Assembly: GCA_041750285.1 (NCBI GenBank)
Contig: JBGSZS010000018.1
Span: 64,048-128,047, forward strand
Reading direction: 5' to 3'
Source of the DNA: Candidatus Fermentibacteraceae bacterium
Lineage (GTDB): Bacteria > Fermentibacterota > Fermentibacteria > Fermentibacterales > JCC-6
Length of the DNA stretch: 64,000 nt
Part shown: positions 1 through 32,987 of the stretch, piece after piece
Numbering within the stretch: the first letter of the stretch is position 1
How the letters are laid out: every line of letters begins with the position of its first letter
Notes under the pieces: model-generated
Database searches by the model: none
The model's input: only the letters and a program-made list of their open reading frames with translations
What the model was told of the DNA's origin: nothing
Made by a program: the position numbers and the translations under genes

Positions 1-1480
1 CCTCGGGGTTGTACTGATCCTGAAGACCCGTCGAGAGAAGCACGTGGTCAACGACCTCACCCGCCGGGTCACCGCGGGAAACCATCCGGGCCGCCCCGGA
101 AAGGAAGGCTCCAAGTTCCCTGAGAGCGGTTCCACCCCTCGCCGTTATCCCGGGCCAGTCCGATGCCCGGGAAAGGGCTGTCAGGCAGTCGACACCCTCC
201 CTGTAGAAGTTCAGGAAGAAACTCTCCTCGCCCTTTTTCCCAACCCCCCTGGCGGGTTTGTTGATGATCCGGGAAAGGCTTTCCCCATCCCTGGGGTTGA
301 CCAGAATCCTCAGGTAACTCACAAGGTCCTTGATCTCCTCGCGTTCGAAGAAACGCTGGGCGCCAACCACCTCGTATGCCACCCCGCACCTCCTGCAGGC
401 GGCCTCGAACTCCCGGGACTGGGCGTTGGTCCTGTAAAGCACGGCCATGCGTGAAAGGGGTGTGCCCGAGGACTGGAAGGCAAGTGCCGTCCTCACGCTC
501 CACTCCGCCTCGTCCAGGGGGGAGGCGACGGGCTGCACCCTGACTGGCTCACCCATCTCCAGGACCGGAACGAGTGTCTTGCCGTGCCGGTTCGTGTTGT
601 TCGCAACGAGCGCATCGGCGGCCCTCAGTATGTTGCCGGTCGAACGGTAGTTGGTCTCCAGCCTGACTATCTTCGTCCCGGGAAAGTCCTCTGGAAAGTC
701 GAGGATGTTCGACACCCTGGCCCCCCGCCACCCGTAGATGGCCTGGTCATCGTCGCCGACAACCGTCACACAGGTCGAATCTCCCGCAAGGGTCTTCAGT
801 ATCAGGTGCTGAACGAGGTTGGTGTCCTGGTATTCGTCCACAAGGATTCTCAGGAACTTCGAACGGTAGTAGTCCCTGATGTCATTATTTTGACGAAGAC
901 CTTCGAGAGTGTATGTCAACAAATCGTCGAAATCGAAAGCCCTGTTTTCCGACAGTGTTTTCTGGTAGGCGGCGTAAACATTCGCCATCGCTTCCTGCCG
1001 ACCGGTAACCGCTTCCTCGAGAGACTGTTCTGGCGGGACAAGGTCGCTTTTCCTCTCCGATATCCATGACAGGGCCGCGGAGACCGTTATCCCTCCCGGA
1101 GGCGCGAGCCTCTTCAGAATCTTCCTGAGAAGGGCCTTCTGGTCTGATGCGTCGTAGACCGTGCAGTTGTCGGCGTATCCCAGGCGGCCGGCTTCCCTTC
1201 GCAGGAACCAGAGGCAGGTCGAGTGAAACGTGCCCATCCTGGGCAGGTCGCGCCCGCCGAGCATCTCCGACACCCTTCTGCCCATCTCCCGGGCGGCCTT
1301 GTTCGTGAAGGTCATGGCAAGGATGTTCCCCGGCTTCACCTTTCCCTCTCGAAGCAGGCGTGCGATCTTGGCAGTGAGCACCCTTGTCTTGCCGCTGCCC
1401 GCGCCGGCGAGGACGAGAAGGTGTCCCTCGTCGTACTCCACGGCTTCCTTCTGCCGGGGGTTCAGGTGAAGCTCAATCAT
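1..1480 (-). CDS. UvrD/PcrA/Rep-family ATP-dependent DNA helicase; N-terminal ~493 aa, C-terminus lies beyond the window edge
   Basis: Reverse translation from the ATG at 1478-1480 gives MIELHLNPRQKEAVEYDEGHLLVLAGAGSGKTRVLTAKIARLLREGKVKPGNILAMTFTNKAA, with a Walker A GAGSGKT motif. The frame stays open to position 1, so it is missing from the supplied ORF track. The listed ORFs in 1-1480 are out-of-frame overlaps. Confidence 0.85.
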   Translation of the reverse strand, partial: MIELHLNPRQKEAVEYDEGHLLVLAGAGSGKTRVLTAKIARLLREGKVKPGNILAMTFTNKAAREMGRRVSEMLGGRDLPRMGTFHSTCLWFLRREAGRLGYADNCTVYDASDQKALLRKILKRLAPPGGITVSAALSWISERKSDLVPPEQSLEEAVTGRQEAMANVYAAYQKTLSENRAFDFDDLLTYTLEGLRQNNDIRDYYRSKFLRILVDEYQDTNLVQHLILKTLAGDSTCVTVVGDDDQAIYGWRGARVSNILDFPEDFPGTKIVRLETNYRSTGNILRAADALVANNTNRHGKTLVPVLEMGEPVRVQPVASPLDEAEWSVRTALAFQSSGTPLSRMAVLYRTNAQSREFEAACRRCGVAYEVVGAQRFFEREEIKDLVSYLRILVNPRDGESLSRIINKPARGVGKKGEESFFLNFYREGVDCLTALSRASDWPGITARGGTALRELGAFLSGAARMVSRGDPAGEVVDHVLLSTGLQDQYNPE

Positions 1481-1804
1481 TTGGCATCCTTTTTGCTTTC
1501 ATTCTCAACGCGTTTGGTTGTGCACTGTATCTGGTTGTTTGTTTCAATGTTACCCTTGCAGAACCCACATTGGGAGGAACTGCAGAATGTACACCCCCGG
1601 GCTGAAAAGCTGGCTGGTCCTCGCCCTTTCGGGCGCGGTGGTTCCAGTGCTCGTTTCCCTGCTGTTCTCGGCCTGATCCCCTCCCAGGCCGGTTAACGGG
1701 GAACCTGGCAATTTTCGGTCCGGATCCGCGGGCGGCTGGTCAACCCCTCCAGCCGCCCGTACCCGTTTATACAAAAAAAAGTCGCCCATGGGAAAAATGC
1801 TTTT

Positions 1805-1820: not shown

Positions 1821-1957
1821 TAGGTATTGGATGAACGATGAAATGGGTCCAGGCTCCGCCACCCTTAGCAGGGTGAACAAGCAGGTCTGAAAGAGAATGG
1901 AATGGATCCCCTCCCCATTCCGGACCGGTTGACAGGCTTGAGGAGTCGGGGCGGACA

Positions 1958-1992
1958 GGCGGCCGGTTACCCCTCCGGCCGCCTTAACTTTT
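1958..1992 (+). terminator. Rho-independent terminator-like hairpin (9-bp perfect GC stem, 8-nt loop) followed by TTAACTTTT
   Basis: ggcggccgg (1958-1966), loop ttacccct, ccggccgcc (1975-1983), then ttaactttt. The deoC stop codon at 1967-1969 lies in the loop, so the hairpin may act in both directions. Confidence 0.45.
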
Positions 1993-2629
1993 GCAAGATC
2001 ATCACGCCCGAGCTGGTGCCGATAATGGAGGCTCCCGCGGCCAGCATGGCGAGAACCGCCCCGGGTGTCCTGATGCCGCCCGATGCTTTCACATGAACTC
2101 CGGAGCCAACCGTTCTGCGAAGCAGCGCGACATCGGCCACGGTGGCGCCACCGGAACCGAAGCCGGTGGAGGTCTTCACGCAGAAGGCGCCGGCTTCCAC
2201 GGCCAGACCGCATGCAATGACCTTCTCTTCATCTGTGAGAAGGCAGGTTTCGAGTATGATCTTCACGGGCACCCCGGCCGACCCTGCGATCTGTCTCAGA
2301 AGCGAGGACACCTCCCGTACTGCTCCATCCTTCAGATGTCCCAGCGGGATCACGGCGTCGATCTCGCGTGCCCCGTGCGAAACCGCAAGTTCGACCTCAC
2401 GCGGGGTGGCCGGACCCGAACCGAGGGGGAACCCGGCGACCGAGCAGACCAGGGGGCCTTCCTTCCCGAGGATCGACGAAGCCAGAGCCACCCGGCACGG
2501 GTTAACGCAAACCGACCTGAACCCGTACTGAACTGCCTCGCGGCAATAACGCTCAACATCCCCGGATGTCGCATCGGGTCGAAGCAGCGTGTGGTCGATC
2601 CTGCCGGGAATGTCCCCCGGGTCGGTCAC
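1967..2629 (-). CDS. deoC: deoxyribose-phosphate aldolase
   Basis: IDHTLLRPDATSGDVERYCREAVQYGFRSVCVNP...VKASGGIR is a typical DeoC. The start is trimmed to the GTG at 2627-2629, which overlaps the upstream stop in a GTGA junction. The N-terminal extension of the long ORF is junk. Confidence 0.8.
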   Translation of the reverse strand: MTDPGDIPGRIDHTLLRPDATSGDVERYCREAVQYGFRSVCVNPCRVALASSILGKEGPLVCSVAGFPLGSGPATPREVELAVSHGAREIDAVIPLGHLKDGAVREVSSLLRQIAGSAGVPVKIILETCLLTDEEKVIACGLAVEAGAFCVKTSTGFGSGGATVADVALLRRTVGSGVHVKASGGIRTPGAVLAMLAAGASIIGTSSGVMILQKLRRPEG

Positions 2630-3930
2630 AGGCTCTGCCTGACGAAAACGAACACCGTTTCCCTCGCGGAGACACGAACAGGAGCATGGGAGGAAGCCCG
2701 TCCGTTGACCGTTATGCCAACGGGCCAGGTTCCTTCCGGAACCACGACCCTTGCAACATGGATCTGCGCCGGCATGGTAAGCCACGCCCTGAGGTCGGCC
2801 CTGTCGGTAACCGCACCCACGATGCTCAAAACAAGGCCCACTGCGTCACCAACCCTGGCGTCGCCGCTGGCCTCTTCGGCTATCCCCTCGCCAAGCTCGG
2901 AAACACCCGCCTTCACTGCGGTCCTTGCGGCCGCCCTTAGAACGTCGCGTCCCGCATGATCCTGAAGGTTCTGCCTGGCAAGCGCGTTCATGTCCTGCAC
3001 GAGGAAGAATGGTTCCCTGTTCCCGGCAACCTCGGCCGTGGCGGTCACTGAACGCCTTGGGCGTTCGGATATTGCCGGCAGTGAGATGTTGAACACGCGG
3101 TCGTCGGTGACCACGGAATAGCTTTCCTCGTGCCGTGTCGCGATGCTTCCCGCCTCGAGCACGAGAACGATCTCGCCCATGCCGGCGCCGGATGGCGTGT
3201 TCCCGGTGTCGAGGCCGGGCCACCGTTCAGTGTACTCGGAGAGCAGGCTTTCGTAGCCCGTGGCCCTGGCAAGGCGCAAAAGATCGACCTTGAGCCTGTC
3301 GGGCACGGGTACGCCGTAGTTCCGGGCGTAGTCGCCCTCGTAGATCTGAAGCGCCAGCCGGTAGCTCACCAGGGCATCGGAAAGCTCTCCGTCCGCTTCA
3401 TACAGCATCCCCATGAAGTAGCGGATGAAGGCATCGTCAATGTACCTGTTGGGGTTCTCGCCGTAGTCGGAGTTGAACACGCGAAGTTTCTGGTTGACCC
3501 TTCGAGCCTCGACCAGGGCGTTCTCGTAGTCTCCCGTGGAGGCGAAACTCGCTGCAAGGGCATAGTTGATGAACACCTTTTCGTAGTCGGCGCCCCTGAA
3601 CTCCCTGGCAAGGTCGCTGGTGAGCAGGGCTGCCGCCTCCTGATCGAAAGCTGTGCCCCTCTGGTTGTCGCTGATGCTCTCCGCCCTCAGAAGAGCAGCC
3701 CTGGCAACCTGTTGGGCTCCGGCGTATCGGGCCAGGTTGCCAAGCTCCATCAGATAGAGAAGCCTGTCCCGGCCCGTGGAGTCGGGGAAAACCTGTCTGA
3801 GGCGGACCATTGCCTGCTGGGGCTGGTACGAATCGAGCATTCCCACCACGGGACGGATCGTTCCGGTATACCCCGCAGCGCACGCCAGCCCCAGCAGAAC
3901 GGTGGAGAAAGCCAGAAGCCTTCTTACCAC
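2626..3930 (-). CDS. exported TPR-like protein of unknown function (434 aa), partner of the LpoB-like lipoprotein
   Basis: N-terminal signal peptide MVRRLLAFSTVLLGLACA-AG. The central region has TPR-like helical repeats (YENALVEARRVNQKL, LALQIYEGDYARNYG). It overlaps the upstream gene by 7 nt and deoC by 4 nt. Confidence 0.6.
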   Translation of the reverse strand: MVRRLLAFSTVLLGLACAAGYTGTIRPVVGMLDSYQPQQAMVRLRQVFPDSTGRDRLLYLMELGNLARYAGAQQVARAALLRAESISDNQRGTAFDQEAAALLTSDLAREFRGADYEKVFINYALAASFASTGDYENALVEARRVNQKLRVFNSDYGENPNRYIDDAFIRYFMGMLYEADGELSDALVSYRLALQIYEGDYARNYGVPVPDRLKVDLLRLARATGYESLLSEYTERWPGLDTGNTPSGAGMGEIVLVLEAGSIATRHEESYSVVTDDRVFNISLPAISERPRRSVTATAEVAGNREPFFLVQDMNALARQNLQDHAGRDVLRAAARTAVKAGVSELGEGIAEEASGDARVGDAVGLVLSIVGAVTDRADLRAWLTMPAQIHVARVVVPEGTWPVGITVNGRASSHAPVRVSARETVFVFVRQSL

Positions 3931-4538
3931 TCGATGATCTTCTTTATCTCGGTGGAACCCATCCAGACCTTGAGAGCGGTCTCGACGCTTACGAGTTCCA
4001 GGTTGACCTGATAGTAGACCGCACGGACATCGCCCTCCTGGTCTTCGACCGAATTCACGGTTCCAACCATGACAAAGTCGGCCCCGACTTCCCGGCCGAA
4101 CTGCGCAGCGGTTTCGGGGGAAGCGAAGATGGACTGGTCGCGGCGTTCCTGGCGGACCTCCTCACGTTCCCGGCCCCCGGCTGCGATCTGCACCCTGCCG
4201 CTGTTCAGAAGTGCCCTCTCGATGTCGCTCATGAAAACATCGGTGTTGATGTGCTCGAGGCTCTGATTGCGGACACCGCCGACAACGACAACCGGCTGGG
4301 CGGGCACTCCCCGCGCCTCCTCGCCCCTGTAGGTCACGTTGAGCCAGGTGCCGGCCATGCACTGGGCGACCATGGAGTCGGCGACGATGCGAGAGTCGGT
4401 GTCGTTCCAGCGGCCGCTGAGGTCTGTCTGGGTTCCGGGATCGGTGCGTGTCACGGTCCTGCCTCCGCACCCCGCCAAAAGAGCAACCAGAGCTGCCGCT
4501 ACAAGAAGCTTTTTCAAGGTTACACCCCTTTCATTCAT
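3924..4538 (-). CDS. LpoB/CsgG-like lipoprotein (COG3417-type)
   Basis: The internal start gives MNERGVTLKKLLVAAALVALLAGCGG with a perfect LAGC lipobox. PVVVVGGVRNQSLEHINTDVFMSDIERALLNSGRVQIA and ADFVMVGTVNSVEDQEGDVRAVYYQVNLELVSVETALKVWMGSTEIKKI match the LpoB/CsgG-family pattern. This is recalled from memory and was not searched. Confidence 0.55.
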   Translation of the reverse strand: MNERGVTLKKLLVAAALVALLAGCGGRTVTRTDPGTQTDLSGRWNDTDSRIVADSMVAQCMAGTWLNVTYRGEEARGVPAQPVVVVGGVRNQSLEHINTDVFMSDIERALLNSGRVQIAAGGREREEVRQERRDQSIFASPETAAQFGREVGADFVMVGTVNSVEDQEGDVRAVYYQVNLELVSVETALKVWMGSTEIKKIIEW

Positions 4539-5328
4539 GGCCCGGAAGGTCGATGGCCCCCCGGAAGATAACATTGAAGTAACCCGTGTCACGGCCTGTC
4601 CCCGTGACAATGGGAACAGGCAGTGGCTTGAAGATCATGATGCATGGATCACCGGCTTCGGGCATGGCGATGGAGGGGTCGCCACCAAGGGGCGTGTGGG
4701 TGAGCTCCCACATCACCCTTTCCTCTTCCGTGCTGTAGCCCGCGAACATCGCCTGCCTGCCGAGCGCTCCAAGTATGTCTCCAAGGCTTGTCTCGAGAAG
4801 GTTCGCGTAGAGCTGCATCTCGTTGAAGGCGTTGAAGGGCTGGATGAGGCCAAGTTGAGCGGCTGCATGTATCTCGGCAAGGGTGGGCAGTCGTGCGCCC
4901 CGGGATGAAAGGTACCACTGGGCGCCCGTCCAGGTGAAGGCGGCCGCGGGCCGGTCAAGGCAGACCGCCGGCACGGAGTACTCGGAAGTCGCAGTGGCCA
5001 CGAAGGGCGTAAACGCAAGGAAGTGGCCGCTGTCGCTGTACTGGCCCGTGATGACCGAGGCCAGCACCTGCCCGTCACGGCAGTTCTGCCCGAGCCAGGG
5101 AAGAACGTCGCGGTACGCCACCGGCAGCGAATCGATGAAGAAAGCGCCGACCTGCACGGTGTCACCCTGAACCACCACGCTCGATGCGGGCACGTATACC
5201 ATCCCGGGCGGCGGCAGGGGAAGTCCGCAAACGCTGCAGCTGTTTTCGGTCTGTTCGGCGCCGCATGCTGGACACGTCCAGGCGGCAGCGGAGAAGGCCA
5301 GAATCAGAAGGGCCCGGAGGGCGTTCAA
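4531..5328 (-). CDS. secreted FGE-sulfatase/DUF1566-like (C-type-lectin-fold) domain protein
   Basis: Signal peptide MNALRALLILAFSAAAW. The YLSSRGARLPTLAEIHAAAQLG motif resembles the RLPTxxE signature shared by the formylglycine-generating-enzyme and DUF1566 families. The C-terminus has an FRG motif. It overlaps yhhQ by 4 nt. Confidence 0.45.
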   Translation of the reverse strand: MNALRALLILAFSAAAWTCPACGAEQTENSCSVCGLPLPPPGMVYVPASSVVVQGDTVQVGAFFIDSLPVAYRDVLPWLGQNCRDGQVLASVITGQYSDSGHFLAFTPFVATATSEYSVPAVCLDRPAAAFTWTGAQWYLSSRGARLPTLAEIHAAAQLGLIQPFNAFNEMQLYANLLETSLGDILGALGRQAMFAGYSTEEERVMWELTHTPLGGDPSIAMPEAGDPCIMIFKPLPVPIVTGTGRDTGYFNVIFRGAIDLPGHE

Positions 5329-6020
5329 ACCTTTTCACCTCCCTTTGCGGCGATCCTTCTTCCCATGTAGATGAACGGAGTGTCGAAGGCTGCCACAATG
5401 AACTTGATCACGTAAGTGGAAACCAGAACGTCAATGAATACCCGTTTTTCAAGAACTCCCCAGAAGGCGATCCCGCAGAAGATCACCGTGTCGATGAGCT
5501 GGCTGACCATGGTGGACAGGTTGTTGCGAAGCCAGAGGTGCCTGCCCTTCGAAAGCCTCCTGATGTGGTTGTAGGCCCAGACATCGTGGAACTGGCTCAC
5601 AAGGTATGCGGCTATGCTCGCCAGGGCGAGACGAGGCATGAAACCGAAAAGAAGCTTCATTGCGCCGTTCACCTCCATGGCCCATGGGTCCTGCGCCGGC
5701 GAGAACAGAAGCGCCACCTGCATCACGACGGTCATCGCGATCATGCTCACAAAACCGGCGATGACGGCCCTGCGGGCCTCGGCGGGGCCGTAAACCTCGT
5801 TCAGTAGGTCAGTGGCGAAGAAGATGACCCCGTAGAGGATGTTGCCCAGGGTGACTGTGAAGCCGAACAGGGTCGTGAGTTTCATGACCTCGAGGTTGCA
5901 CAGGATGACGGCCGACGCCACCAGGGCGATAAGCCCGGTTTTCCCGCCGGACCGGAATACCAGCAGAGTGGCCGAAAGCATGGCGAAAAGGCTGATGAAC
6001 CAGAGTACTTCGTTGCCCAT
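5325..6020 (-). CDS. yhhQ: queuosine precursor transporter (YhhQ/DUF165 family)
   Basis: Polytopic membrane protein. LGNILYGVIFFATDLLNEVYG matches the conserved YhhQ motif. Confidence 0.75.
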   Translation of the reverse strand: MGNEVLWFISLFAMLSATLLVFRSGGKTGLIALVASAVILCNLEVMKLTTLFGFTVTLGNILYGVIFFATDLLNEVYGPAEARRAVIAGFVSMIAMTVVMQVALLFSPAQDPWAMEVNGAMKLLFGFMPRLALASIAAYLVSQFHDVWAYNHIRRLSKGRHLWLRNNLSTMVSQLIDTVIFCGIAFWGVLEKRVFIDVLVSTYVIKFIVAAFDTPFIYMGRRIAAKGGEKV

Positions 6021-8860
6021 CAGAACTCGGCACCGAGAGTCACATAGTGTTCGGGCTTCTCGCTCACACCGTTGAGGTCGGTTCTCCAGGCGCAGTCCCA
6101 GAGGAAGACGAACAGGCCGAGGTTGAACCTGAGGCCAAAACCGAACCCCATCTTCAGGTCGTTGAGCCTGAACCCGCCGTCGGTCCTCACTGCCCTGAAG
6201 GCGCCCACATCATCGGTGGCCCCGCCTATGTCCGTGAAGATAACCCCCCTGCCTCCGGTCACCGTCAGCGGTATCGGGGCGGCAAGGCTCAACTGGTCGA
6301 CAAAGGGGTATCGGAGCTCGAGGGAGCCCAAAGCGTACCTTGTTCCGTTGTACTCCACGTAGTCGAAGCCCCGCAGCAGGTCTGAGTAGCTCGTGTAGAA
6401 CCCGAAAAGGTCCTCCACACCCTGAACGTCGCCGACGCTCCTGCGGTGTGGGATGGCTCCGCCGAGGAAGAACCTTTGAGGGTCCTCGCCAAAGCTGGCA
6501 CCGGCCGCCAGCCTGGTGGCAATGGTGACCTGGCCCGAAACCCAGGTGTAGTTCCTGATGTCGCCCTGGATGGTTGTGTAACCGGCGTTTTCCCAGAAGC
6601 CGGGGGCCCAGTCCGCCGAGAGGGACATCCTGCTTCCAACCCTGGGTCCCGTTGCCCCCCAGAGAGCGTTGTCGAGAACAAGCCTTCCGCTGAAGGCGAG
6701 TATGTTCTCGCGGAGGTTGATGTCGGTGGACCAGAGCCCCTCCCTGTCCAGCCTTCGGTACCCCACCCCAAGCGAGGCCCTGAGGGAACGGGTGAAGGGG
6801 TAACGCAGTTCCAGCCCCGTTCCTATCTCGGTGTCCCTCACGTAGTCGTTCTCTTCGCTCTGGGTGTCGGTGAACCGGTACCGTGTGGCAAGACGGTACA
6901 GCGACACGCCGTACTGAACCCTGCCCTCCATGTTGGAGTAGAAGCACCCCGCGTCGACATCGCTGACTTCACCGTTGAGATCGGCAAGGATCGCAAGCTG
7001 GTGCCTTGCGAGAATGTCGCTGAAAATGAACTGCGAGTACCCCGCAAGCCCGGCGTAGCTGTCAAAACCGGCTGTGGCACTCACGTAGTCGAGGCTCAGG
7101 CCAGGATCGTAGGGTGAGATCCGCCACGTGCCCGGGGTTGCCAGCGTTGTCTCGACGATGCCGGAGTCGGGGGGCGCGGGAACGGGAGGTGATTCGGGTT
7201 CGCTTCCGGCCCTCTGTGAAAGGTTGCGGGTCAGGAATATCCCGCCTCCGCTCCAGTCCGATGAGTAGAACATTGAAAGCCCGGTGTCGGATGCCCTGGA
7301 AAGGGCGGAGGGGGTTCTGTAGAGGTTGCTTATCCGGGTTACCTCCCCGGTTTCAGCGGACAGGAGGTGGAAATTGGCTCCGCTGCCGGTGTTCATTATG
7401 AACACAACACCCTCGGGGTACGAGACCGGGTTCCGCAGGGAGAAAGGTGTCTCGTAGAGAAGACGGGGGGATTCGCCGGGGAACACTGCGTTCAGTGTGT
7501 AGATCCTGCCGTTCTCCCTTTCTCCCACATAAAGGATGCCCTGGTCGCCCCACCAGAGGTCGCGGGGACTGTCGCCGCCGTCCGTTATCCTTTCGACGGC
7601 TCCGGTTGCGGTGTTCCACAGGTAGATGTCCAGAACCCCTTCACTCATCGCGCTGAAGGCAACACGGCCCCCGTCCGGGGACCATGCCGGGTCGCGGACA
7701 AGCTGAAACTCTACGGGAAGGGCAAGCTCGCCGCCCCCTATGCCCCTTATCAGAAGGCCGTCGGCGTACTGGCCCTGAACCGCGACGGCCACTGAATCCG
7801 ACCCCGGGGAGAAGGCGCCTGTGCGGAACATGGGTGAAGGGCTGGTCTCGTTAAGACCTGCACCGCTGACGGGTCTGAGTATCTCCCTTCCGTCGGCCGT
7901 GCTTCTGACAACCGAAGAGAACCTTCCCCTGTGAAACTCCACGCCCGATGTCATGGCCCCGTCGGGGGAGATCACCGGCTCTGCGAGGACCACTCTCCTG
8001 CGGCCCCTGCTTCCGTCACGGATTATGGGGGTTCCGATGTCGGAGGGGCTCTCTCCTTCGGAAACGGGAGCCCAGTAGGTTTCGCGGGCCCATTCGATGA
8101 ACCGTTCGCTGAACTGCTCGACCGACATGTCGAAGGCGGCCCTGACGGCCCCCTGAAGGCCGTCGTTGTCCCTCAGGTGTCTTACGAAATCGATGTAACG
8201 GTCTTCGCCGTACCTGTCAACCATGAACTTGTAGATGGCCTGACCCTGCCGGTAGACAAGGTAGTCGCTTCGCACGGAGAGCTGCTGGATGGGGACGATC
8301 TGGTTCGCTATGACCATGTCGCGGAACTCGGACTCGCTGTCGATGTCCCACCCCTGAGACGTGTATTCCGCAAGCCCCTCGAGGGTCCAGAGAGGGGCCT
8401 TGCTCCGGACTATCCCATACAGGCTGCGGTCGTAAAGCATGTCGTACACGAAGGCGTGGTTGATCTCGTGTTCCAGCACATGGCGGTACTCGCTGTACAC
8501 ACCAGCGTAGGGAACGACGACCCTGCCCTTGAAGAACTCGGTGAAACCGCCGACCCCCTCGCCGATCTCGCCGCTGATGACCGAGGTCTGGCGGAACCTT
8601 CCCGGCGACCTGTAAACGATGACAGGGATGGGCTCGGAGGGCAGGTACTCGAAAGTCGATGAAAGGGCCTGCATTGACCTTTCGCCGATGACGACGGTGC
8701 TCTCCGCGACCTGCTCGGTTCCCTCTTCGTAGTAGACGGTGAACCTGCTTGAATGAAGCTCCCACCAGGGGTTGTCGTGTGTGAAGACCCTGTTCCTGCC
8801 GTAACCGGTCGCAAGGGCCGTGGAAGCCAGAAGCAAAGGAAGAACGCATCTTGCAGCCAT
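6020..8860 (-). CDS. large outer-membrane protein with an N-terminal HExxH (gluzincin-like) domain, TolB-like beta-propeller repeats and a C-terminal Omp85/BamA-family (Bac_surface_Ag) beta-barrel ending in Phe
   Basis: Signal peptide MAARCVLPLLLASTALA. Zinc-binding motif VLEHEINHAF, with EGLAEY downstream. TolB-like repeat PDGGRVAFSA...DIYLW. C-terminal Omp85 motifs QRFFLGG...LRGFDY, SLELRYPF, GRGVIFTDIGG and GFGFGLRF, and the protein ends in ...LGAEF. No POTRA domains are evident. Confidence 0.7.
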   Translation of the reverse strand: MAARCVLPLLLASTALATGYGRNRVFTHDNPWWELHSSRFTVYYEEGTEQVAESTVVIGERSMQALSSTFEYLPSEPIPVIVYRSPGRFRQTSVISGEIGEGVGGFTEFFKGRVVVPYAGVYSEYRHVLEHEINHAFVYDMLYDRSLYGIVRSKAPLWTLEGLAEYTSQGWDIDSESEFRDMVIANQIVPIQQLSVRSDYLVYRQGQAIYKFMVDRYGEDRYIDFVRHLRDNDGLQGAVRAAFDMSVEQFSERFIEWARETYWAPVSEGESPSDIGTPIIRDGSRGRRRVVLAEPVISPDGAMTSGVEFHRGRFSSVVRSTADGREILRPVSGAGLNETSPSPMFRTGAFSPGSDSVAVAVQGQYADGLLIRGIGGGELALPVEFQLVRDPAWSPDGGRVAFSAMSEGVLDIYLWNTATGAVERITDGGDSPRDLWWGDQGILYVGERENGRIYTLNAVFPGESPRLLYETPFSLRNPVSYPEGVVFIMNTGSGANFHLLSAETGEVTRISNLYRTPSALSRASDTGLSMFYSSDWSGGGIFLTRNLSQRAGSEPESPPVPAPPDSGIVETTLATPGTWRISPYDPGLSLDYVSATAGFDSYAGLAGYSQFIFSDILARHQLAILADLNGEVSDVDAGCFYSNMEGRVQYGVSLYRLATRYRFTDTQSEENDYVRDTEIGTGLELRYPFTRSLRASLGVGYRRLDREGLWSTDINLRENILAFSGRLVLDNALWGATGPRVGSRMSLSADWAPGFWENAGYTTIQGDIRNYTWVSGQVTIATRLAAGASFGEDPQRFFLGGAIPHRRSVGDVQGVEDLFGFYTSYSDLLRGFDYVEYNGTRYALGSLELRYPFVDQLSLAAPIPLTVTGGRGVIFTDIGGATDDVGAFRAVRTDGGFRLNDLKMGFGFGLRFNLGLFVFLWDCAWRTDLNGVSEKPEHYVTLGAEF

Positions 8861-8912: not shown

Positions 8913-9257
8913 ATGAAAGCCGCAACAATCACCGTCTGGACGACTCTCACCCTGCTTCTATCCGCTTCGGGATGCGGGGGTTCCCCCCGTTCGAACGCGG
9001 AGCTTTCCCGGACTGAACGGGTGCTTCTCGAGGAAACCGGAGGCATTCTTGCCAGGAACCTGGCGTTCCCGCCGGGAAGCGCCAACTGGCGGGAAGCCCC
9101 TTCGGAATCTGTCGCAACGGCAGTCACGGGAATCGCTGACCGGGTCCCCTCGGCCTGGACGGTTCTCTTCCGCTCGGCGTCCGACACCCTTGCAAGGCTC
9201 GAATCGCCCTATCAGGGCATTGGCTACGGTGACACCCCGGGGCAGGGTTCAAGGTGA
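8913..9257 (+). CDS. small hypothetical lipoprotein
   Basis: The internal ATG at 8913 gives MKAATITVWTTLTLLLSASGCGG, a signal peptide with an SASGC lipobox. It lies between two divergent minus-strand units. Confidence 0.35.
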   Translation: MKAATITVWTTLTLLLSASGCGGSPRSNAELSRTERVLLEETGGILARNLAFPPGSANWREAPSESVATAVTGIADRVPSAWTVLFRSASDTLARLESPYQGIGYGDTPGQGSR

Positions 9258-9302: not shown

Positions 9303-10550
9303 TCAGACGCGGGTGACGACACGGGCGACGTCGCGCCAGATGACTGCGGCGAAAAGGAGAAGGAGCATGAAGAAGCCGATCTGCTGGGCGAGCTGGATGT
9401 GCTTCTTCGATGCCGGGCGGCGTCTGATGCCTTCGTAGAGAAGGATGAGGAACTGGCCGCCGTCGAGGATGGGTACGGGCAGAAGGTTGAACCCCATGAT
9501 GGCGAGCGAGAGGTAGGAAACAGTTTCAAGAAGGCGGGCAAGGCCGAATGAAGCCTGCTGACCCAGGGTTTCCGCAACGAAGACTGGTCCGCCCGACATC
9601 TCGACGAGCTGAACGGGTTTGAGGATCATGGCCGCGATCCCTGTGAAGAACGCTCCCGCTCCCTCGATGGAGGCGGCCACGCTGACAAGAAAGGCCCTGC
9701 CGATGGAAAGCCTCACGACGCGAGTTCTGGTGAGGGGGGTCACACCGATCAGCTTCCTTCCCTGGTAGTCCAGTGGTTCGACGAAGATCGTGTCGGTAAC
9801 GCCGTCGCGAACGAAGACCAGTTCGAGGAACCTCCCCTGAAAACCGGCCACGGCGCTCTGAAGGTCGCTGAAAGCAGCGAGTGGAATGCCGTCGGCCGTT
9901 ACAACGCTGTCTCCCGTGCGAAGGCCGGCCTCGTAGGCCGGAAGCCCTACCGAAGCCTCTCCGATGACGGTCGAAAGCAGGGGGGTGAAGCCGGGAGCCG
10001 AGTCGGGATCGAGTGAATAGGGAACCTCAAGGGCTCCGACGGCTGCCCTGCGGATCGTGAACACGCCCTCGGGTATCCGCTGGGTCTTCTGGAAGACCTG
10101 GTCCCAGCTCTGGACAGCCTCGCCGTTCACGGCCGTCACCAGATCGCCCCTGGAAAGCCCGGGCACACCGAACGGGTCGTCCACCACAGGTTCGGAATCG
10201 GGTACTCCCGTTCCAATGACGCCAAGGACCGCGAAGATCAGCAGGAAGGCAAGGCACAGGTTCATTGCCGGCCCGGCAAGGACCACGAGGGCGCGTTTCC
10301 ACCATGGCGGTCTGATGCCGTCGGTGTCGTTGCCGGAGGTTCCCAGGTCGACCTTGACGAAGCCGCCCAGGGGGATGGCCCCTATGCAGTATTCGGTCCC
10401 GCCCCGCCTGACCCGGACGAGCAGCGGGGGAAACCCCATTGAAAACCTTTCAACTGGAAGCCCGACCGCCTTCGCCATGAGAAAATGGCCAAGCTCGTGG
10501 AAGAAAACGATTATTCCCAGCCCGAACACGACGGCAAGAGCGCTGCTCAC
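9303..10550 (-). CDS. rseP: RIP metalloprotease RseP (site-2 protease) with PDZ domain
   Basis: FHELGHFLMAKAVG HExxH motif, a PDZ region and a C-terminal LDGG motif. Confidence 0.85.
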   Translation of the reverse strand: MSSALAVVFGLGIIVFFHELGHFLMAKAVGLPVERFSMGFPPLLVRVRRGGTEYCIGAIPLGGFVKVDLGTSGNDTDGIRPPWWKRALVVLAGPAMNLCLAFLLIFAVLGVIGTGVPDSEPVVDDPFGVPGLSRGDLVTAVNGEAVQSWDQVFQKTQRIPEGVFTIRRAAVGALEVPYSLDPDSAPGFTPLLSTVIGEASVGLPAYEAGLRTGDSVVTADGIPLAAFSDLQSAVAGFQGRFLELVFVRDGVTDTIFVEPLDYQGRKLIGVTPLTRTRVVRLSIGRAFLVSVAASIEGAGAFFTGIAAMILKPVQLVEMSGGPVFVAETLGQQASFGLARLLETVSYLSLAIMGFNLLPVPILDGGQFLILLYEGIRRRPASKKHIQLAQQIGFFMLLLLFAAVIWRDVARVVTRV

Positions 10551-11659
10551 ATCTCCTCCATGACATCCCGCGCCAGTTGCCTGGCATGGGAATCGGCCTT
10601 TTCCAGAACGTCAAATCCTGTGACAGGAACGGCGTCGAACCTTGAAAGGACCCCTGAGATCACTTCGGATACGGCACCGAAGGGGATCCGCCTCGAGAGG
10701 AAAGCCCTCACCGCCTCCTCGTCAGCGGCGTTGGCTGCCGCCGGGGCCGTTCCACCGGTATCATAAGCAGCCAGGACGGCGGCGTACGCAGGGTATCTCC
10801 CGGGGTCAACCGGACGGAAATGAAGGGCGCCCCACCCGAGGGGGTGGTCACCGCAACGGGTTTCGGGAATGTCGAGCGCAGGCCAGTGGAGGGCGTAGGA
10901 AATGGGAAGGCCCATGTCCGGAGTGCCCATCAGTGCCTTCCATGCGCCGTCGGCGGTCTCGACCAGGGAGTGGACGATGCTTTCGGGATGAACCACCACC
11001 TCGACGGGAATGCCCGGGAAAAGGCGCCTTGCTTCGATAACCTCGAAAGCCTTGTTCACCATTGACGCCGAGTCGACGGTTATCCTTGAGCCCATGCTCC
11101 AGTTCGGGTGGGAGAGGACACGCTCGACCGAAGCCGTGGCCAACTCGCACGCCGGCATGTCGCGAAGGGCGCCTCCGCTTGCAGTAAGAACGATGCGTGC
11201 GGGTGGTCTGTGCTCGCCGGCGAGACAGCGGAAGATCGTGCTGTGCTCGCTGTCGACCGGTATGACCAGCCCCTTCCCGAGGTGCTGAAGCAGAAGGTCC
11301 CCGCCCACAACCAGGCTCTCCTTGTTGGCCAGGGCCAGGGGGATTCCCGCTTCCTGCGCGAGAAGGCTTGCCTCGAGCCCCGCGCTGCCCACTATGGCGT
11401 TGAGAACCATGTCGGCACCCCCGATCAGCCCTGCAAGGTGTTCCCTGCCCACGAGAAGGCCTGTTCCATCAGCCCCTGCGGGGAGTGTGGCAATGCCCGC
11501 CAGGGCGGGATCGTACCGCTCCACCTGCTCCCTGAGGATGGAAAGCGATGAACCGCAGTAAACCGAGTGGAGAACCAGCGAGGGGCTTTTTTCGATCACT
11601 GCAAGGGCCTGCACTCCAATGGAGCCCGTGGAACCCAGCACCGCGACCCGCCTCTTCAC
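10547..11659 (-). CDS. dxr: 1-deoxy-D-xylulose 5-phosphate reductoisomerase
   Basis: RVAVLGSTGSIG NADPH-binding motif, plus LANKESLV and SHPNWSMG. The start is trimmed to about V31, next to the cdsA stop. Confidence 0.85.
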   Translation of the reverse strand: MKRRVAVLGSTGSIGVQALAVIEKSPSLVLHSVYCGSSLSILREQVERYDPALAGIATLPAGADGTGLLVGREHLAGLIGGADMVLNAIVGSAGLEASLLAQEAGIPLALANKESLVVGGDLLLQHLGKGLVIPVDSEHSTIFRCLAGEHRPPARIVLTASGGALRDMPACELATASVERVLSHPNWSMGSRITVDSASMVNKAFEVIEARRLFPGIPVEVVVHPESIVHSLVETADGAWKALMGTPDMGLPISYALHWPALDIPETRCGDHPLGWGALHFRPVDPGRYPAYAAVLAAYDTGGTAPAAANAADEEAVRAFLSRRIPFGAVSEVISGVLSRFDAVPVTGFDVLEKADSHARQLARDVMEEM

Positions 11660-11663
11660 TCTC

Positions 11664-12464
11664 TCACCCCATCCCCAGAAGCCCGTAGAGCACCAGGGCG
11701 ACCGGGGCAGCGGCAACGACGCTGTCGAACCTGTCGAGGATGCCGCCATGATCGGCCAGGAACCGGCCCGAATCCTTTATGCCCGCATCACGCTTCACCG
11801 CGCTCTCGAAGAAGTCGCCGATCACTCCGGCCACTCCGCACAACAGACCCACGAGAAGAAGATGTGCAAGGGGTGCGGTACCGCGGCCCAGAACTGCCAC
11901 CGATGCCATTGAACCCGCAATGCCCGCTGTGAAACCCTCCCAGGATTTCGCCGGGCTGACGAGTGGCAGCATCTTGTGCCTTCCCCAGCGGCACCCCGCG
12001 AAGTAGGCGAAGCTGTCGCCCACCCAGCAGGAAACCAGCGGGATCAGAACCGGCGCGCGGTCGGTCCACCCCAGAGACAGTCTGGCAAGGACTCCAAACC
12101 CCAGTGTGTAGTATGCCGTCAGGGCCATCACGCCAAGCATCCCCGCGCGGGCGCCCTCGGGAGTCCGCCGCGAGATCCACCACATGGCGTGAACGGCGCC
12201 CGGAAGCATGAGGGCCTGCATGGCGTACTGCGACCCGACGCCTGTCAGCAGTGTGGACAGGGCGGCGGCTGACCCCACCATGAACCGGAGGGGAATGGGT
12301 GTGGAAACCACGCAGAGAGTCACTGCCTCGTAAGCCGCAAGACCTGCGAGAAGGGCGAAAAGCGCAAGGGAGGCAGTGGGGCCGCCCCAGAGAATGACGG
12401 CCAGAAAGGCGGCGAGTCCTGGAACGGCCACGAGTATCCGCCCCCTGAGGCCGGGAAACGGCAT
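11664..12464 (-). CDS. cdsA: phosphatidate cytidylyltransferase
   Basis: Multi-TM protein with a C-terminal GGILDRFDS motif. Confidence 0.8.
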   Translation of the reverse strand: MPFPGLRGRILVAVPGLAAFLAVILWGGPTASLALFALLAGLAAYEAVTLCVVSTPIPLRFMVGSAAALSTLLTGVGSQYAMQALMLPGAVHAMWWISRRTPEGARAGMLGVMALTAYYTLGFGVLARLSLGWTDRAPVLIPLVSCWVGDSFAYFAGCRWGRHKMLPLVSPAKSWEGFTAGIAGSMASVAVLGRGTAPLAHLLLVGLLCGVAGVIGDFFESAVKRDAGIKDSGRFLADHGGILDRFDSVVAAAPVALVLYGLLGMG

Positions 12465-13171
12465 CAGTCGGTCAGGCCGCCGTACCGGCGGCCCCTTCCC
12501 GAATAGTCCTCGAGGGCGGCCCTGAAGTGCTCCCTGTCAAAGTCCGGCCACAGGACCGGAGTGAAGTAGAGTTCGCTGTAGGCGGACTGCCAGAGCAGGA
12601 AGTTCGAGAGCCTCTGTTCCCCCGAGGTGCGGATTATCAGGTCGGGGTCGGGAATGTCGGGGTTGTAAAGGAAAGCCCCTATCGTGTCCTCGGTGATGTC
12701 TTCAGGAGAGACTGCGCCGTCACGGACCTGCGCGGCGAGCTTCCTGACCGAGTCCAGTATCTCGGCCCTGCCGCCGTAGCTGAGGGCGAGGACCAGAACG
12801 AGCCCCGTGTTTTCGGCGGTCTTCTCCATGGCTTTGGTGAGATCGGCCCGCTGCTTTTTCGGAAGGTCGTCGAACCTGCCGGTGACACGGAGCCTGACCT
12901 GCTTGCGGTGAAGCTCTTCGATGTTGTTCTGTATGAACCGCGACAATAGCTTCATCAGAAAGGCGACCTCGAGCCTCGGGCGGCTCCAGTTCTCTGTGGA
13001 GAAGGCGTAAAGGGTGAGGAACCTTATCCCGGTTTCGCCGCAGAACTCGACGGCGGTGTGAATGGCCCTTTCCGCTGCGGAATGGCCGTCGGTGCGTGGA
13101 AGACCCCTCTTCTTTGCCCAACGGCCGTTACCGTCCATGATTATGGCAACATGGGACGGAACGGCAGCCAT
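12464..13171 (-). CDS. uppS: undecaprenyl diphosphate synthase
   Basis: HVAIIMDGNGRWAKKRGLPR plus ENWSRP. Confidence 0.9.
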   Translation of the reverse strand: MAAVPSHVAIIMDGNGRWAKKRGLPRTDGHSAAERAIHTAVEFCGETGIRFLTLYAFSTENWSRPRLEVAFLMKLLSRFIQNNIEELHRKQVRLRVTGRFDDLPKKQRADLTKAMEKTAENTGLVLVLALSYGGRAEILDSVRKLAAQVRDGAVSPEDITEDTIGAFLYNPDIPDPDLIIRTSGEQRLSNFLLWQSAYSELYFTPVLWPDFDREHFRAALEDYSGRGRRYGGLTD

Positions 13172-13731
13172 CAGACCTCCAGGATCTCTTTTTCCTTTGC
13201 CTTGAGCAGTTTGTCTATCTCGAGGCCGGCCTCGTCAACGGCTTTCTGGACAAGGTCCTGTGTTTTCTTCTCGGCGTCTTCGGTTATCTCGCCGGCCTTG
13301 CAGGCCTTCTTGAGCTGGTCGTTGGCGTCCCTGCGGACGTTGCGAAGGGAGGTGCGGCCCTCTTCCGCCAGTTTTTTCACGAGTTTTATCAGGTCCTTCC
13401 GGCGCTCTTCGGAAAGCTTTGGCACCGGAATGCGGATAACCGGGCCGTCGATGGTTGCCCTGAGCCCCAGGTCGCTTGCTTCGATGGCCCTTGCGATGGC
13501 GGGCGCCGTGGACTGGTCCCAGGGCTGGACCACGATCAGCCTGGGTTCGGGCGCACTGATTCCCGCGACCTGTTTGATTGGCATGGCATCGCCCCAGCAC
13601 TCGACCCTTATGTTGTCGAGGAGGGCCGGGCTGGCCTTTCCCGTCCGTATCACGGACATCTCACGGGATGTGTTCTGAACTGTCTTCGAAGACTTCTCAC
13701 GCACTTCGGAGAGTATGGTTTCCTGCATCAC
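13171..13731 (-). CDS. frr: ribosome recycling factor
   Basis: Typical Frr length and sequence (SRE...IRTGKASPALLDNIRVE). Confidence 0.9.
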   Translation of the reverse strand: MMQETILSEVREKSSKTVQNTSREMSVIRTGKASPALLDNIRVECWGDAMPIKQVAGISAPEPRLIVVQPWDQSTAPAIARAIEASDLGLRATIDGPVIRIPVPKLSEERRKDLIKLVKKLAEEGRTSLRNVRRDANDQLKKACKAGEITEDAEKKTQDLVQKAVDEAGLEIDKLLKAKEKEILEV

Positions 13732-14450
13732 GATTCCTCCACGACCGTTGCCGGAAGCTCGCCCCTCAGCACCCGGCTGAAGTTGCCGGTTCCGGTCAGG
13801 TCAAACACGGCGATCCTTATACCTGCGTCGCGGCAGACCGCCACTGCGGCGGCATCCATGAAACCAAGCCCCATGGAGAGGACCTGGTCGTAGCCCAGCC
13901 GTTCAAAACGCCTGGCACCGGGGTGAAGCTTCGGATCCCTGTCGTAGATCCCGTCGACCTTCGTGCCCTTGTAAAGGGTCGTGCACCCTGTCTGGGCGGC
14001 CCTGAGAGCGGCGGCGGTGTCGGTGCTCAGGTGCGGGTTCCCGGTTCCCCCGGCAAAGAAGATGATCTCGCCCCTTCCGAAAAGCTCTGCGGCCTTTCTG
14101 GGGGAGAAGGTCTCCACCCCCGCTTCGGGAAAGGGAAAGGCGCTGAAGACTGTTGAACGCCCGCCGGCCCTGATGACGGCATCGGACAGGGCAAGCGAAT
14201 TCATGACGGTGGCCAGCATGCCCATGTAATCGGCCGTTGTCCGGGTGATGCCGCCCGTGTCACGCCCCCTGAGGAAGTTGCCTCCCCCGGCGACGACACC
14301 GGGCTGATACCCCTGGGACGACAGTGCGATGAGTTCGGAGGCAAGCTCGGACACCCTGGACGGATCGATGCCGTGACCCAAGCCCCCCGCGAGCACTTCG
14401 CCGCTGAGCTTGAGCAGGAACCTCTCCCGCGGGCGGGGGCCTTCCTCCAT
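13728..14450 (-). CDS. pyrH: UMP kinase
   Basis: LLKLSGEVL, GGGNFLRG and the amino-acid-kinase fold. Confidence 0.9.
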   Translation of the reverse strand: MEEGPRPRERFLLKLSGEVLAGGLGHGIDPSRVSELASELIALSSQGYQPGVVAGGGNFLRGRDTGGITRTTADYMGMLATVMNSLALSDAVIRAGGRSTVFSAFPFPEAGVETFSPRKAAELFGRGEIIFFAGGTGNPHLSTDTAAALRAAQTGCTTLYKGTKVDGIYDRDPKLHPGARRFERLGYDQVLSMGLGFMDAAAVAVCRDAGIRIAVFDLTGTGNFSRVLRGELPATVVEES

Positions 14451-14451
14451 C

Positions 14452-15047
<596 letters not shown>

Positions 15048-15051
<4 letters not shown>

Positions 15052-22475: not shown

Positions 22476-22804
22476 AAAAGGTCCCCCAGACCCGGGGGGA
22501 TGCCCAGCCCCTGCATCTTCTCGCGGGCCAGCTCCCGGCTCCTCCCGACGGCGTCCTGCACCGCGGAAAGCACAAGGTCTTCCAGCATCTCCACATCGGA
22601 GGGGTCCACGGCATCAGGCGAGATGCGAATGCCCTTCAGCTCGCCCTGCCCGTTAACGACCGCCGTGACCATGCCGCCGCCGGATGTGCCCTCAACCGTT
22701 GCGGCCGCCAACTCCTCCTGTGCCTTCATCATTCCTGACTGCATCTTCTGGGCCTGGGCCATCATGTCCCGCATCTTACGGTTCACCGCGAACTCCTTCT
22801 CCAC
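22472..22804 (-). CDS. ybaB: nucleoid-associated protein YbaB/EbfC
   Basis: 110 aa, MMKQAQKMQ-type N-terminus and the usual dnaX-ybaB-recR synteny. Confidence 0.85.
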   Translation of the reverse strand: MEKEFAVNRKMRDMMAQAQKMQSGMMKAQEELAAATVEGTSGGGMVTAVVNGQGELKGIRISPDAVDPSDVEMLEDLVLSAVQDAVGRSRELAREKMQGLGIPPGLGDLF

Positions 22805-24134: not shown

Positions 24135-24184
24135 GCGGCTCTCCCTTCGGGGGAAGGTGAAGAGGGACTCACGCGGGAACATGG

Positions 24185-24292
24185 AACACCCGGGCGGAAA
24201 CGGGGTGGCCGCGTCACCCGAAGGACACCGCTTACGGCTGCTGCCTTCCGGCCCTGACCGGGTTCGCGGGCTTCCGCCGCGCGGGCCCCGCT
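24185..24292 (-). ncRNA. ffs: signal recognition particle RNA (small 4.5S type)
   Basis: The minus-strand sequence ACCCGGUCAGGGCCGGAAGGCAGCAGCCGUAAGCGG matches the conserved SRP RNA domain IV (E. coli CCAGGUCAGGUCCGGAAGGAAGCAGCCAAGGCAG). A closing helix forms between GGCGGAAGC and GUUUCCGCC. It sits in the canonical position upstream of dnaX. Confidence 0.65.
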
Positions 24293-24369
24293 TCCGTATG
24301 CCCGGGTGCCGCCGCCGACTCGTTGGAACCGGCAGCACCGGAGAATATATGGAAAAAGGGCAAAACCGG

Positions 24370-25839: not shown

Positions 25840-25915
25840 TGGTGGAGATGAGCGGGATCGAACCGCCGGCCTCTGCCTTGCGAAGGCAGCGCTCTACCAA
25901 CTGAGCTACATCCCC
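25840..25915 (-). tRNA. tRNA-Ala (anticodon CGC), CCA encoded
   Basis: GGGGAUGUAGCUCAGUUGGUAGAGCGCUGCCUUCGCAAGGCAGAGGCCGGCGGUUCGAUCCCGCUCAUCUCCACCA. G3:U70 identity pair. Anticodon loop UUCGCAA. Confidence 0.85.
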
Positions 25916-32968: not shown

Positions 32969-32987
32969 GGGGTGCGGGGCTGCCCCG

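Follow-up and report, generated by a model that had tools for sequence, protein, structure and literature searches.

A probable outer-envelope operon of Fermentibacteria in which a widespread LpoB-like/COG3014 lipoprotein pair accompanies an Omp85 fusion protein with a putative peptidase domain

We analyzed a stretch of 64,000 nucleotides (nt) from a Candidatus Fermentibacteraceae bacterium (GenBank assembly GCA_041750285.1, contig JBGSZS010000018.1, positions 64,048 to 128,047), referred to here as the window, with a focus on six consecutive minus-strand genes at positions 1967–8860. This six-gene region is probably a single compact, co-transcribed outer-envelope operon. Four of the genes are the unit conserved within the phylum; they encode an Omp85 fusion protein, an exported protein with similarity to formylglycine-generating enzyme (FGE), an LpoB-like lipoprotein, and a lipoprotein of the COG3014 family. 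The LpoB-like and COG3014 genes also constitute a two-gene cassette of many diderm phyla, and the two remaining genes, for the transporter YhhQ and the aldolase DeoC, are variable passengers with housekeeping functions unrelated to the envelope set. Overall, the arrangement combines known but poorly understood kinds of components. As for its function, we favor, at slightly better than even confidence, a co-transcribed outer-envelope operon in which a lipoprotein complex acts in cell-wall and outer-membrane homeostasis and is coupled to an outer-membrane-tethered protease, with YhhQ and DeoC as passengers. The genes of the run, in the order of transcription, and the features within their products are the following.

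6020–8860, minus strand: Omp85 fusion protein, 946 amino acids (aa); Pfam Peptidase_MA_2, PD40, and Omp85, all above their cut-offs
8090–8641, minus strand: Peptidase_MA_2 domain (PF13485) of the fusion, residues 74–257; 38.7 bits, cut-off 32.4
8456–8470, minus strand: HExxH motif of the fusion, HEINH, residues 131–135, with EGLAEYTS downstream
7241–7705, minus strand: TolB-like β-propeller of the fusion, matched part at ∼residues 386–540; PDB profile search, TolB chains at E = 7e-15
6083–6883, minus strand: Omp85 barrel (PF01103) of the fusion, residues 660–926; 37.9 bits, gathering cut-off 24, E = 1.9e-9
5325–6020, minus strand: YhhQ/Vut_1 queuosine-precursor transporter, 231 aa; TIGR00697, 216.8 bits, cut-off 50.95
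4531–5328, minus strand: exported FGE-fold protein, 265 aa, TTG start codon, signal peptide; Pfam, AlphaFold2, and Foldseek
5227–5274, minus strand: invariant CPxC...CxxC knuckle of the FGE-like protein
4882–4893, minus strand: RLPT motif of the FGE-like protein
3924–4538, minus strand: LpoB-family lipoprotein, 204 aa; PF13036, E = 2.1e-36, 125.5 bits, cut-off 22.3
4467–4469, minus strand: Cys-24 of the LpoB-like protein in the lipobox LLAGC, read from the sequence
2626–3930, minus strand: COG3014-family lipoprotein, 434 aa; profile search, AlphaFold2, and BLASTP
3880–3882, minus strand: lipobox Cys-17 of the COG3014 protein, invariant in 50 diverse members
2770–2808, minus strand: C-terminal family motif TExADxRxWxTLP of the COG3014 protein, core invariant across 50 diverse members
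1967–2629, minus strand: DeoC deoxyribose-phosphate aldolase, 220 aa, last gene of the run; TIGR00126, 209.9 bits, cut-off 117.3

Within the phylum, we compared the window with five further lineages (L001/L002, L003, L084, L085, and L086; six lineages in all), whose COG3014 proteins are 47–68% identical to that of the window. All six share the gene order Omp85 fusion, FGE-like, LpoB-like, COG3014 without exception, and L086 retains it even though the upstream rseP context is replaced there. Proteins closely related to those of 434 aa and 265 aa were found in Candidatus Fermentibacteraceae, Sabulitectum, and Aegiribacteria (FCB group). YhhQ is inserted between the Omp85 and FGE-like genes in three lineages (the window, L003, and L086) and is absent from L001/L002, L084, and L085; DeoC is present in five lineages and absent from L085. 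A preliminary description of this DNA, made from the sequence alone, had called the pairing of the envelope genes with a queuosine-precursor transporter and DeoC unexpected. Both identities hold (TIGR00697 and TIGR00126), but because YhhQ is missing from 3/6 and DeoC from 1/6 lineages, the pairing is not a conserved property of the locus. Tight packing of the genome accounts for the presence of the two genes in the transcript. DeoC may functionally belong to the downstream pentose-metabolism neighborhood. UvrD lies downstream of the module in all related Fermentibacteria loci; in L001, L003, and L084–L086 the downstream genes encode UvrD, (transaldolase,) a split transketolase, a 2-hydroxyacid dehydrogenase, and a DUF6754 protein.

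To describe the distribution of the lipoprotein genes across phyla, a set of genomes with a single representative of each species was scanned for the motif TExADTRSW, which was derived from a 19-sequence COG3014 sub-alignment. At least 600 matches were listed in at least 10 phyla, and 588 of them were confirmed. Neighborhoods were counted in 84 loci, namely the best 80 loci outside Fermentibacteria and the Fermentibacteria loci. The best 80 stem from Oligoflexia/Bdellovibrionota, Gamma- and Betaproteobacteria, Gemmatimonadota, Cloacimonetes, Nitrospirota, FCPU426, Poribacteria, Goldbacteria, and Campylobacterales. An LpoB-like homolog, detected by iterative search, is located directly upstream of the COG3014 gene on the same strand in 72 of the 84 loci; the two genes adjoin each other in 68 of the best 80 loci outside Fermentibacteria. 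No more than 60 nt separate them in 63 of these 72 loci, and overlaps of 1–7 nt are frequent. At least three of the 12 loci without an LpoB-like homolog end at a contig end. LPP20-family lipoproteins flank the pair in 22 loci (proteobacterial, Nitrospirota, and Campylobacterales), and one Gemmatimonadetes locus shows a weak DUF1425 (YcfL-like) neighbor; lipoproteins of the LPP20 or YcfL type are the partners recruited by the cassette in other lineages. Among the 84 loci, only those of Fermentibacteria contained homologs of the FGE-like protein, the Omp85 fusion, and DeoC, and the FGE-like partner is specific to Fermentibacteria among the loci compared.

These counts redraw the boundaries of the module. 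The preliminary description had grouped the FGE-like, LpoB-like, and COG3014 proteins as a central trio of a conserved envelope module. A conserved envelope module is indeed present and includes the LpoB-like/COG3014 pair, but the trio is not the unit (it comprises four genes in the phylum and the pair across phyla), and the FGE-like protein is not a cross-phylum member. Duplications confined to single lineages were seen at two loci in the same survey. A Gemmatimonadetes locus (L042, 6637–7887) has two tandem LpoB-like genes before COG3014, and in a Goldbacteria locus (L077, 258–2800) the COG3014 gene is present as two tandem paralogs, whereas an LpoB-like gene was not detected.

The six minus-strand open reading frames (ORFs) are free of internal stops, and the five start-to-stop junctions between them were read directly from the sequence; all of them are real, as first described. 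The Omp85 fusion and YhhQ genes share the junction TGATG with a 1-nt overlap at 6020. The junction of YhhQ and the FGE-like gene at 5325–5328 reads TTGA and not ATGA, the one correction to junctions whose positions and lengths are otherwise right; the FGE-like gene starts at this TTG codon, with the Shine-Dalgarno sequence GGAGGTG 8 nt upstream. Further along the run, the FGE-like and LpoB-like genes overlap by 8 nt at 4531–4538 (ATGAATGA), the LpoB-like and COG3014 genes by 7 nt at 3924–3930 (GTGGTAA), and the COG3014 and DeoC genes meet in GTGA at 2626–2629.

Such junctions are common in this genome. In a crude gene call over the whole window, the start codon overlaps the upstream gene in 19 of 40 same-strand neighbor pairs, and a gap of 0–30 nt separates nine more. 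The unrelated run tsf-pyrH-frr-uppS-cdsA-dxr-rseP just upstream has overlapping junctions too. The overlaps are the genome norm, and they support co-transcription and possible translational coupling but no special functional link; being genome-typical, they are not in themselves an argument for a functional unit. The earlier proposal of one transcript with coupled translation can accordingly be kept as an indication of co-transcription, whereas the overlaps lose their value as a sign of a special link. At the orthologous Fermentibacteria loci, tight spacing is kept and the exact overlaps are mostly absent, with gaps of up to ∼180 nt as judged from gene calls. The locus illustrates that overlapping junctions in a compact genome need not mean shared function.

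Three signals in the vicinity of the run were annotated.

4565–4592, minus strand: weak σ70-like match, GTGACA-16-TATCTT with TG, 9/12 matches, just upstream of the LpoB-like start
1957–1984: perfect GC-rich hairpin of 9–10 bp across the DeoC stop codon, with the T-run on the plus strand
1899–1921, minus strand: terminator-like hairpin with T-rich tail, ∼45 nt past the DeoC stop, from a consensus scan only

The σ70-like match is a possible internal promoter of the LpoB-like/COG3014 cassette, although the σ70 consensus may not be that of the host. Because the scan counts are not clearly above those of shuffled sequences (4 against 1.7 and 16 against 11.5 in the promoter and terminator scan), these assignments serve as weak annotation only. 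The hairpin at 1957–1984 resembles an opposite-strand terminator, without an evident gene on that strand. An Rfam scan of the operon region returned no riboswitch or other element, and no preQ1 riboswitch precedes YhhQ.

The Omp85 fusion protein consists of a signal peptide, a gluzincin domain, a TolB-type β-propeller, a Pro-rich linker of variable length, and a β-barrel that ends in a C-terminal Phe. All six orthologs contain the Peptidase_MA_2, PD40, and Omp85 domains, and the best ortholog matches PF01103 at 5.6e-15. With the window protein itself at 37.9 bits against the gathering cut-off of 24, the initial assignment as an Omp85 fusion is confirmed. Pfam places a PD40 repeat at residues 390–413, and the propeller as a whole probably spans ∼residues 290–560. 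In the gluzincin domain, His-131, Glu-132, His-135, Glu-161, Glu-165, and the EGLAEYTS segment are invariant in the six orthologs at identities down to 45%. The invariance of the HExxH and EGLAEYTS motifs points to an active peptidase.

In proteobacteria, the genes tsf-pyrH-frr-uppS-cdsA-dxr-rseP are followed by bamA. The Omp85 fusion gene sits after rseP and hence in the classical bamA slot. Canonical BamA was considered as an identity for the fusion and rejected, since neither a POTRA domain nor a BamA or TamA sequence match was found. POTRA gave no match at E ≤ 1 in any of the six orthologs, the PDB profile search with the fusion yielded TolB only and neither BamA nor TamA, and the sole NCBIfam BamA match was NF058613 at E = 0.086 (10.7 bits, cut-off 1050). 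With a TolB-like propeller N-terminal to an Omp85 barrel and no POTRA, the protein instead fits the uncharacterized WD40-Omp85 subfamily of Heinz and Lithgow, in which the propeller replaces POTRA and which has been likened to a BamA-BamB fusion (PMC4104836). Compared with the subfamily on the basis of this propeller/no-POTRA description, the Fermentibacteria protein differs by a Peptidase_MA_2 domain before the propeller, and its gene differs by its position in the bamA slot with conserved lipoprotein neighbors.

The LpoB-like lipoprotein shares with Escherichia coli LpoB the outer-membrane lipoprotein character and the PF13036 globular domain. The family and the lipobox were both assigned correctly in the preliminary description; the alternative name CsgG was not borne out (no Pfam match at E ≤ 0.1). 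The lipobox is followed by a short linker and the conserved motif DLSGxWNDTDSR, which begins ∼13 residues after Cys-24; residue 48 is the first of the Pfam domain. In contrast, E. coli LpoB has a linker of ∼55 disordered residues; the distance from anchor to domain is only ∼13–24 residues in the window protein. The TIGR02722 equivalog score is 100.1 bits, under the cut-off of 110.55. True LpoB, the activator of penicillin-binding protein 1b (PBP1b), was therefore rejected as an identity, given this score and the missing long linker. Solved LpoB structures were matched only very weakly (E ∼ 0.01), and a PBP1b gene was not found within the window. Orthologs in other phyla are 26–47% identical to the window protein, and the residues invariant across phyla include Cys-24, Trp-44, Asn-45, Asp-48, Glu-95, His-96, Ile-97, Gly-152, Ala-153, and Asp-154. 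The genomic partners differ as well: E. coli lpoB adjoins the small lipoprotein gene ycfL, whereas the window-type gene is paired with COG3014, a family that is to our knowledge absent from E. coli.

The 434-aa protein was assigned to the COG3014 family by BLASTP, in which it matched a Campylobacterales protein (P0321) named "COG3014 family protein" by NCBI with 29% identity over 404 residues (E = 6e-46). P0323, P0268, and P0376 carry the same NCBI name, and P0268 matches the window family profile at E = 7.6e-62. Searched against 1.84 billion representatives, a profile built from the Fermentibacteria members retrieved 4875 at E ≤ 1e-3, of which 907 reached E ≤ 1e-30; almost all are 420–480 aa long and matched over their full length. 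The TPR-like (tetratricopeptide repeat) exported protein of the preliminary description has a TPR domain, as supported by the single TPR motif found by Pfam; its invariant lipobox cysteine makes it a lipoprotein and not merely an exported protein. In the AlphaFold2 model (predicted local distance difference test score, pLDDT, 79), residues 20–236 assume a TPR-like helical domain, and the C-terminal part is predicted as a β-sandwich with a long helical hairpin at residues 314–372. Foldseek against the PDB found only generic TPR proteins (KLC, MamA, PilF, and LbcA); the C-terminal β-sandwich had no match, and the protein as a whole has no solved homolog in the PDB, where a sequence search gave nothing useful either. 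Among ten unusually long family members we found no LpoB-COG3014 fusion. Other fusions occur among the long relatives, a C-terminal outer-membrane β-barrel domain (OMP_b-brl_2) in P0256 and DUF2846 in P0251 and P0299.

The FGE-like protein scores 20.5 bits with PF03781, below the gathering cut-off of 23.3 (E = 4e-4), and for most relatives a PF03781 assignment had been precomputed. Its AlphaFold2 model (pLDDT 85) has as its top 50 Foldseek matches exclusively FGE, pFGE, EgtB, SenA, PvdO, or CalU17 (E ∼ 1e-5, template modeling score 0.42–0.52). The model thus predicts a divergent FGE fold in a protein exported to the periplasm. An alignment of 32 relatives shows the signal peptide, the invariant CPxC...CxxC, and the motifs RLPT, WE, and GYFNVIFRG, so that the protein has the fold and the RLPT, WE, and GFR-like motifs in common with FGE, pFGE, PvdO, and the C-terminal domain of EgtB. 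In contrast to that family, it is only 265 aa long, remains below the Pfam gathering cut-off, and contains an extra invariant N-terminal Cys4 knuckle. Indeed, the only invariant cysteines are Cys-19, Cys-22, Cys-31, and Cys-34, all N-terminal, and the catalytic copper-binding Cys pair of true FGE has no conserved equivalent among the 32 aligned relatives. To judge from this alignment, the protein is most likely non-catalytic as an FGE, and without the catalytic cysteines it probably plays a binding or scaffold role. PorK/GldK are non-enzymatic envelope members of the FGE-sulfatase fold; they were not among the matches. The RLPTxxE motif had been taken at first as a sign of an FGE-sulfatase or DUF1566 domain, of which AlphaFold2 and Foldseek support the former. 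DUF1566, CsgG, DUF4810, and DUF799, the other families proposed for the FGE-like, LpoB-like, and COG3014 proteins, gave no Pfam match at E ≤ 0.1 with any of the three and no match in NCBIfam.

In the reading we favor, the LpoB-like and COG3014 lipoproteins would associate into a complex at the outer membrane, on its periplasmic side. The fusion of the COG3014 relative P0256 to an outer-membrane β-barrel was counted for this outer-membrane association. The complex would regulate or scaffold cell-wall remodeling enzymes and thereby couple peptidoglycan to the outer membrane. In Fermentibacteria, it may cooperate with the barrel-anchored protease-propeller, by analogy with NlpI and LbcA, which steer Prc and CtpA. 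In NlpI-Prc and LbcA-CtpA, a TPR lipoprotein of the outer membrane has a genetic or physical link to a protease of the periplasm, and this protease controls peptidoglycan hydrolases. The likeness to these systems is one of generic TPR similarity only, and LbcA was counted as a structural hint since it is among the Foldseek neighbors of the window TPR domain. The window protease would differ from both, as it is a predicted zinc gluzincin fused to an Omp85 barrel and not an S41 serine protease.

The initial description of the module as one of unknown function needs qualification, because its families have studied members in HP0018/Cj0089 and HP1457/Cj0091. We take HP0018 of Helicobacter pylori and Cj0089 of Campylobacter jejuni to be members of COG3014, and by the NCBI name, HP1457/HP0018 and Cj0091/Cj0089 are probably the closest studied relatives of the cassette. 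In C. jejuni, a single operon comprises cj0089 (a 453-aa TPR lipoprotein), cj0090, and cj0091 (a lipoprotein of the LpoB/COG3417 type) (PMC3100323). HP0018 (469 aa) is a homolog of Cj0089; its deletion reduces or abolishes helical shape and leads to hypervesiculation and chains of outer-membrane vesicles, and HP0018 co-immunoprecipitates with AmiA and MltD (PMC11394524). In enterohepatic species of Helicobacter, the homolog of hp0018 lies in an operon with the homolog of the LpoB-type gene hp1457 (PMC11394524), and lpp20 (HP1456) of H. pylori adjoins HP1457 (PMC12029599). Regulation of cell-wall enzymes would agree with the phenotype of HP0018 and has a precedent in LpoB itself. The window system resembles these systems in its lipoprotein of ∼430–470 aa with one recognizable TPR motif and in the LpoB-family neighbor, which is often accompanied there by LPP20 or a small lipoprotein partner. 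It differs in that its third partner is an FGE-fold protein and not LPP20 or Cj0090, and in its Omp85-protease neighbor, which is specific to Fermentibacteria among the loci compared. Our literature search returned nothing relevant on outer-membrane biogenesis in Fermentibacteria, nor on COG3014 beyond the HP0018 paper.

Several observations speak against the favored reading. Overlapping junctions are ordinary in this genome (19/40 pairs). Neither the Omp85 fusion nor the FGE-like gene was found near the pair in any of the best 80 loci outside Fermentibacteria, so that the coupling of the lipoproteins to a protease is supported by synteny in one phylum only. The link to HP0018 and Cj0089 is indirect, by way of the NCBI name "COG3014 family protein" and background on the family, and the gene order published for Helicobacter and Campylobacter, in which the TPR gene precedes that of the LpoB homolog, is the reverse of that in the window and in the 72 of 84 loci. 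In addition, the cj0089 mutant had no adherence or colonization defect in the assays used, and the HP0018 partners AmiA and MltD are unconfirmed.

The ordinary overlaps, together with the coming and going of YhhQ and DeoC between lineages, would suit a locus without any functional unit, in which the genes are neighbors through genome compactness and the LpoB-like protein is the PBP1b activator of the organism, as its strong match to the Pfam LpoB family might suggest. We regard this explanation as unlikely. The order of the four genes is kept at 45–50% protein identity, including L086 with its different flanks, and the adjacency of the LpoB-like and COG3014 genes recurs in 68 of the best 80 loci of other phyla. 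The LpoB-like protein itself is below the LpoB equivalog cut-off, lacks a long periplasm-spanning linker, and matches solved LpoB structures only at E ∼ 0.01.

A stronger form of association, in which the four proteins would be one outer-membrane machine, either a divergent replacement or supplement of the β-barrel assembly machinery (BAM) or a barrel-anchored protease steered by a TPR lipoprotein and governing envelope homeostasis, appears unlikely to us. If true, it would give a first general function to the LpoB-like/COG3014 cassette of diderm phyla.

More specifically, the locus could encode a non-canonical BAM-like machine in which the Omp85 barrel with its propeller is the counterpart of BamA-BamB and inserts proteins into the outer membrane, COG3014 takes the role of BamD, and the LpoB-like protein is BamC/E-like. 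The position of the fusion gene in the bamA slot after rseP, the C-terminal Phe as a β-signal, and the co-transcription of a TPR lipoprotein and a small α/β lipoprotein with an Omp85 gene are in line with this model, as is the likeness that Heinz and Lithgow saw between WD40-Omp85 proteins and a fusion of BamA with BamB (PMC4104836). It is nevertheless improbable in view of the negative POTRA, BamA/TamA, and NCBIfam equivalog searches, and because the intact zinc-protease motif has no counterpart in BAM. Moreover, the pair is common in proteobacteria, which have canonical BAM, and is never beside an Omp85 gene there in the best 80 loci.

Export of the peptidase-propeller through the barrel as a displayed or secreted protease of a polymer-degrading fermenter, in the manner of a type Vd-like autotransporter with the lipoproteins as neighbors or assembly helpers, would accord with the intact gluzincin motif, the Pro-rich linker of variable length before the barrel, and the PlpD-like order of an N-terminal passenger and a C-terminal Omp85 barrel (PMC4104836), but is very improbable given that PlpD-type proteins keep the POTRA domain that the fusion lacks, that the propeller is specifically TolB-like and TolB is periplasmic, and that synteny with periplasm-facing lipoproteins is kept even where the upstream context changes (L086).

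Returning to the coupling of a lipoprotein complex to a tethered protease, the locus bears on families whose function is poorly defined. The "LpoB" family of Pfam extends far beyond the PBP1b activator of enterobacteria, and few of its members have an assigned role. Their nearly constant pairing with COG3014 TPR lipoproteins across many diderm phyla defines a testable two-protein module, for which the HP0018 and Cj0089/Cj0091 mutants are the only experimental data so far. Fermentibacteria add a candidate effector, the outer-membrane-tethered gluzincin-propeller of the WD40-Omp85 class in the bamA slot, and its place beside the cassette provides a concrete hypothesis for both orphan families.

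The following features flank the run or lie elsewhere in the window.

1–1498, minus strand: UvrD helicase, N-terminal 499 aa, running off the left window end; next gene after DeoC
8913–9257, plus strand: small divergent lipoprotein-like ORF, ∼114 aa, lipobox LSASGC, within the 442 nt that separate rseP from the Omp85 fusion gene
9303–15051, minus strand: housekeeping run tsf-pyrH-frr-uppS-cdsA-dxr-rseP, by Pfam matches
24195–24293, minus strand: bacterial small signal recognition particle (SRP) RNA, 73 bits, Rfam, inside the 5′ end of the dnaX-like ORF 22776–24338
25843–25915, 28176–28263, 37707–37788, and 58049–58121: four tRNAs

The order of the housekeeping run is also found in L001, L003, L084, and L085. 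The small lipoprotein-like ORF at 8913–9257 has no Pfam match, and a small opposite-strand ORF at its position aligns in five other Fermentibacteria loci. As the SRP RNA lies inside the 5′ end of the longest dnaX-like ORF, the true dnaX start is further downstream. Two minus-strand genes encode candidate envelope or secreted proteases, an S8 subtilase at 31106–33040 and, at 49354–50835, a PDZ-containing S41 protease of the CtpA/Prc type. Two others, likewise on the minus strand, encode fusion proteins, one of a ferredoxin domain with the α subunit of electron transfer flavoprotein (39684–41195) and one of a Na/Pi cotransporter with PhoU domains (54124–56169).

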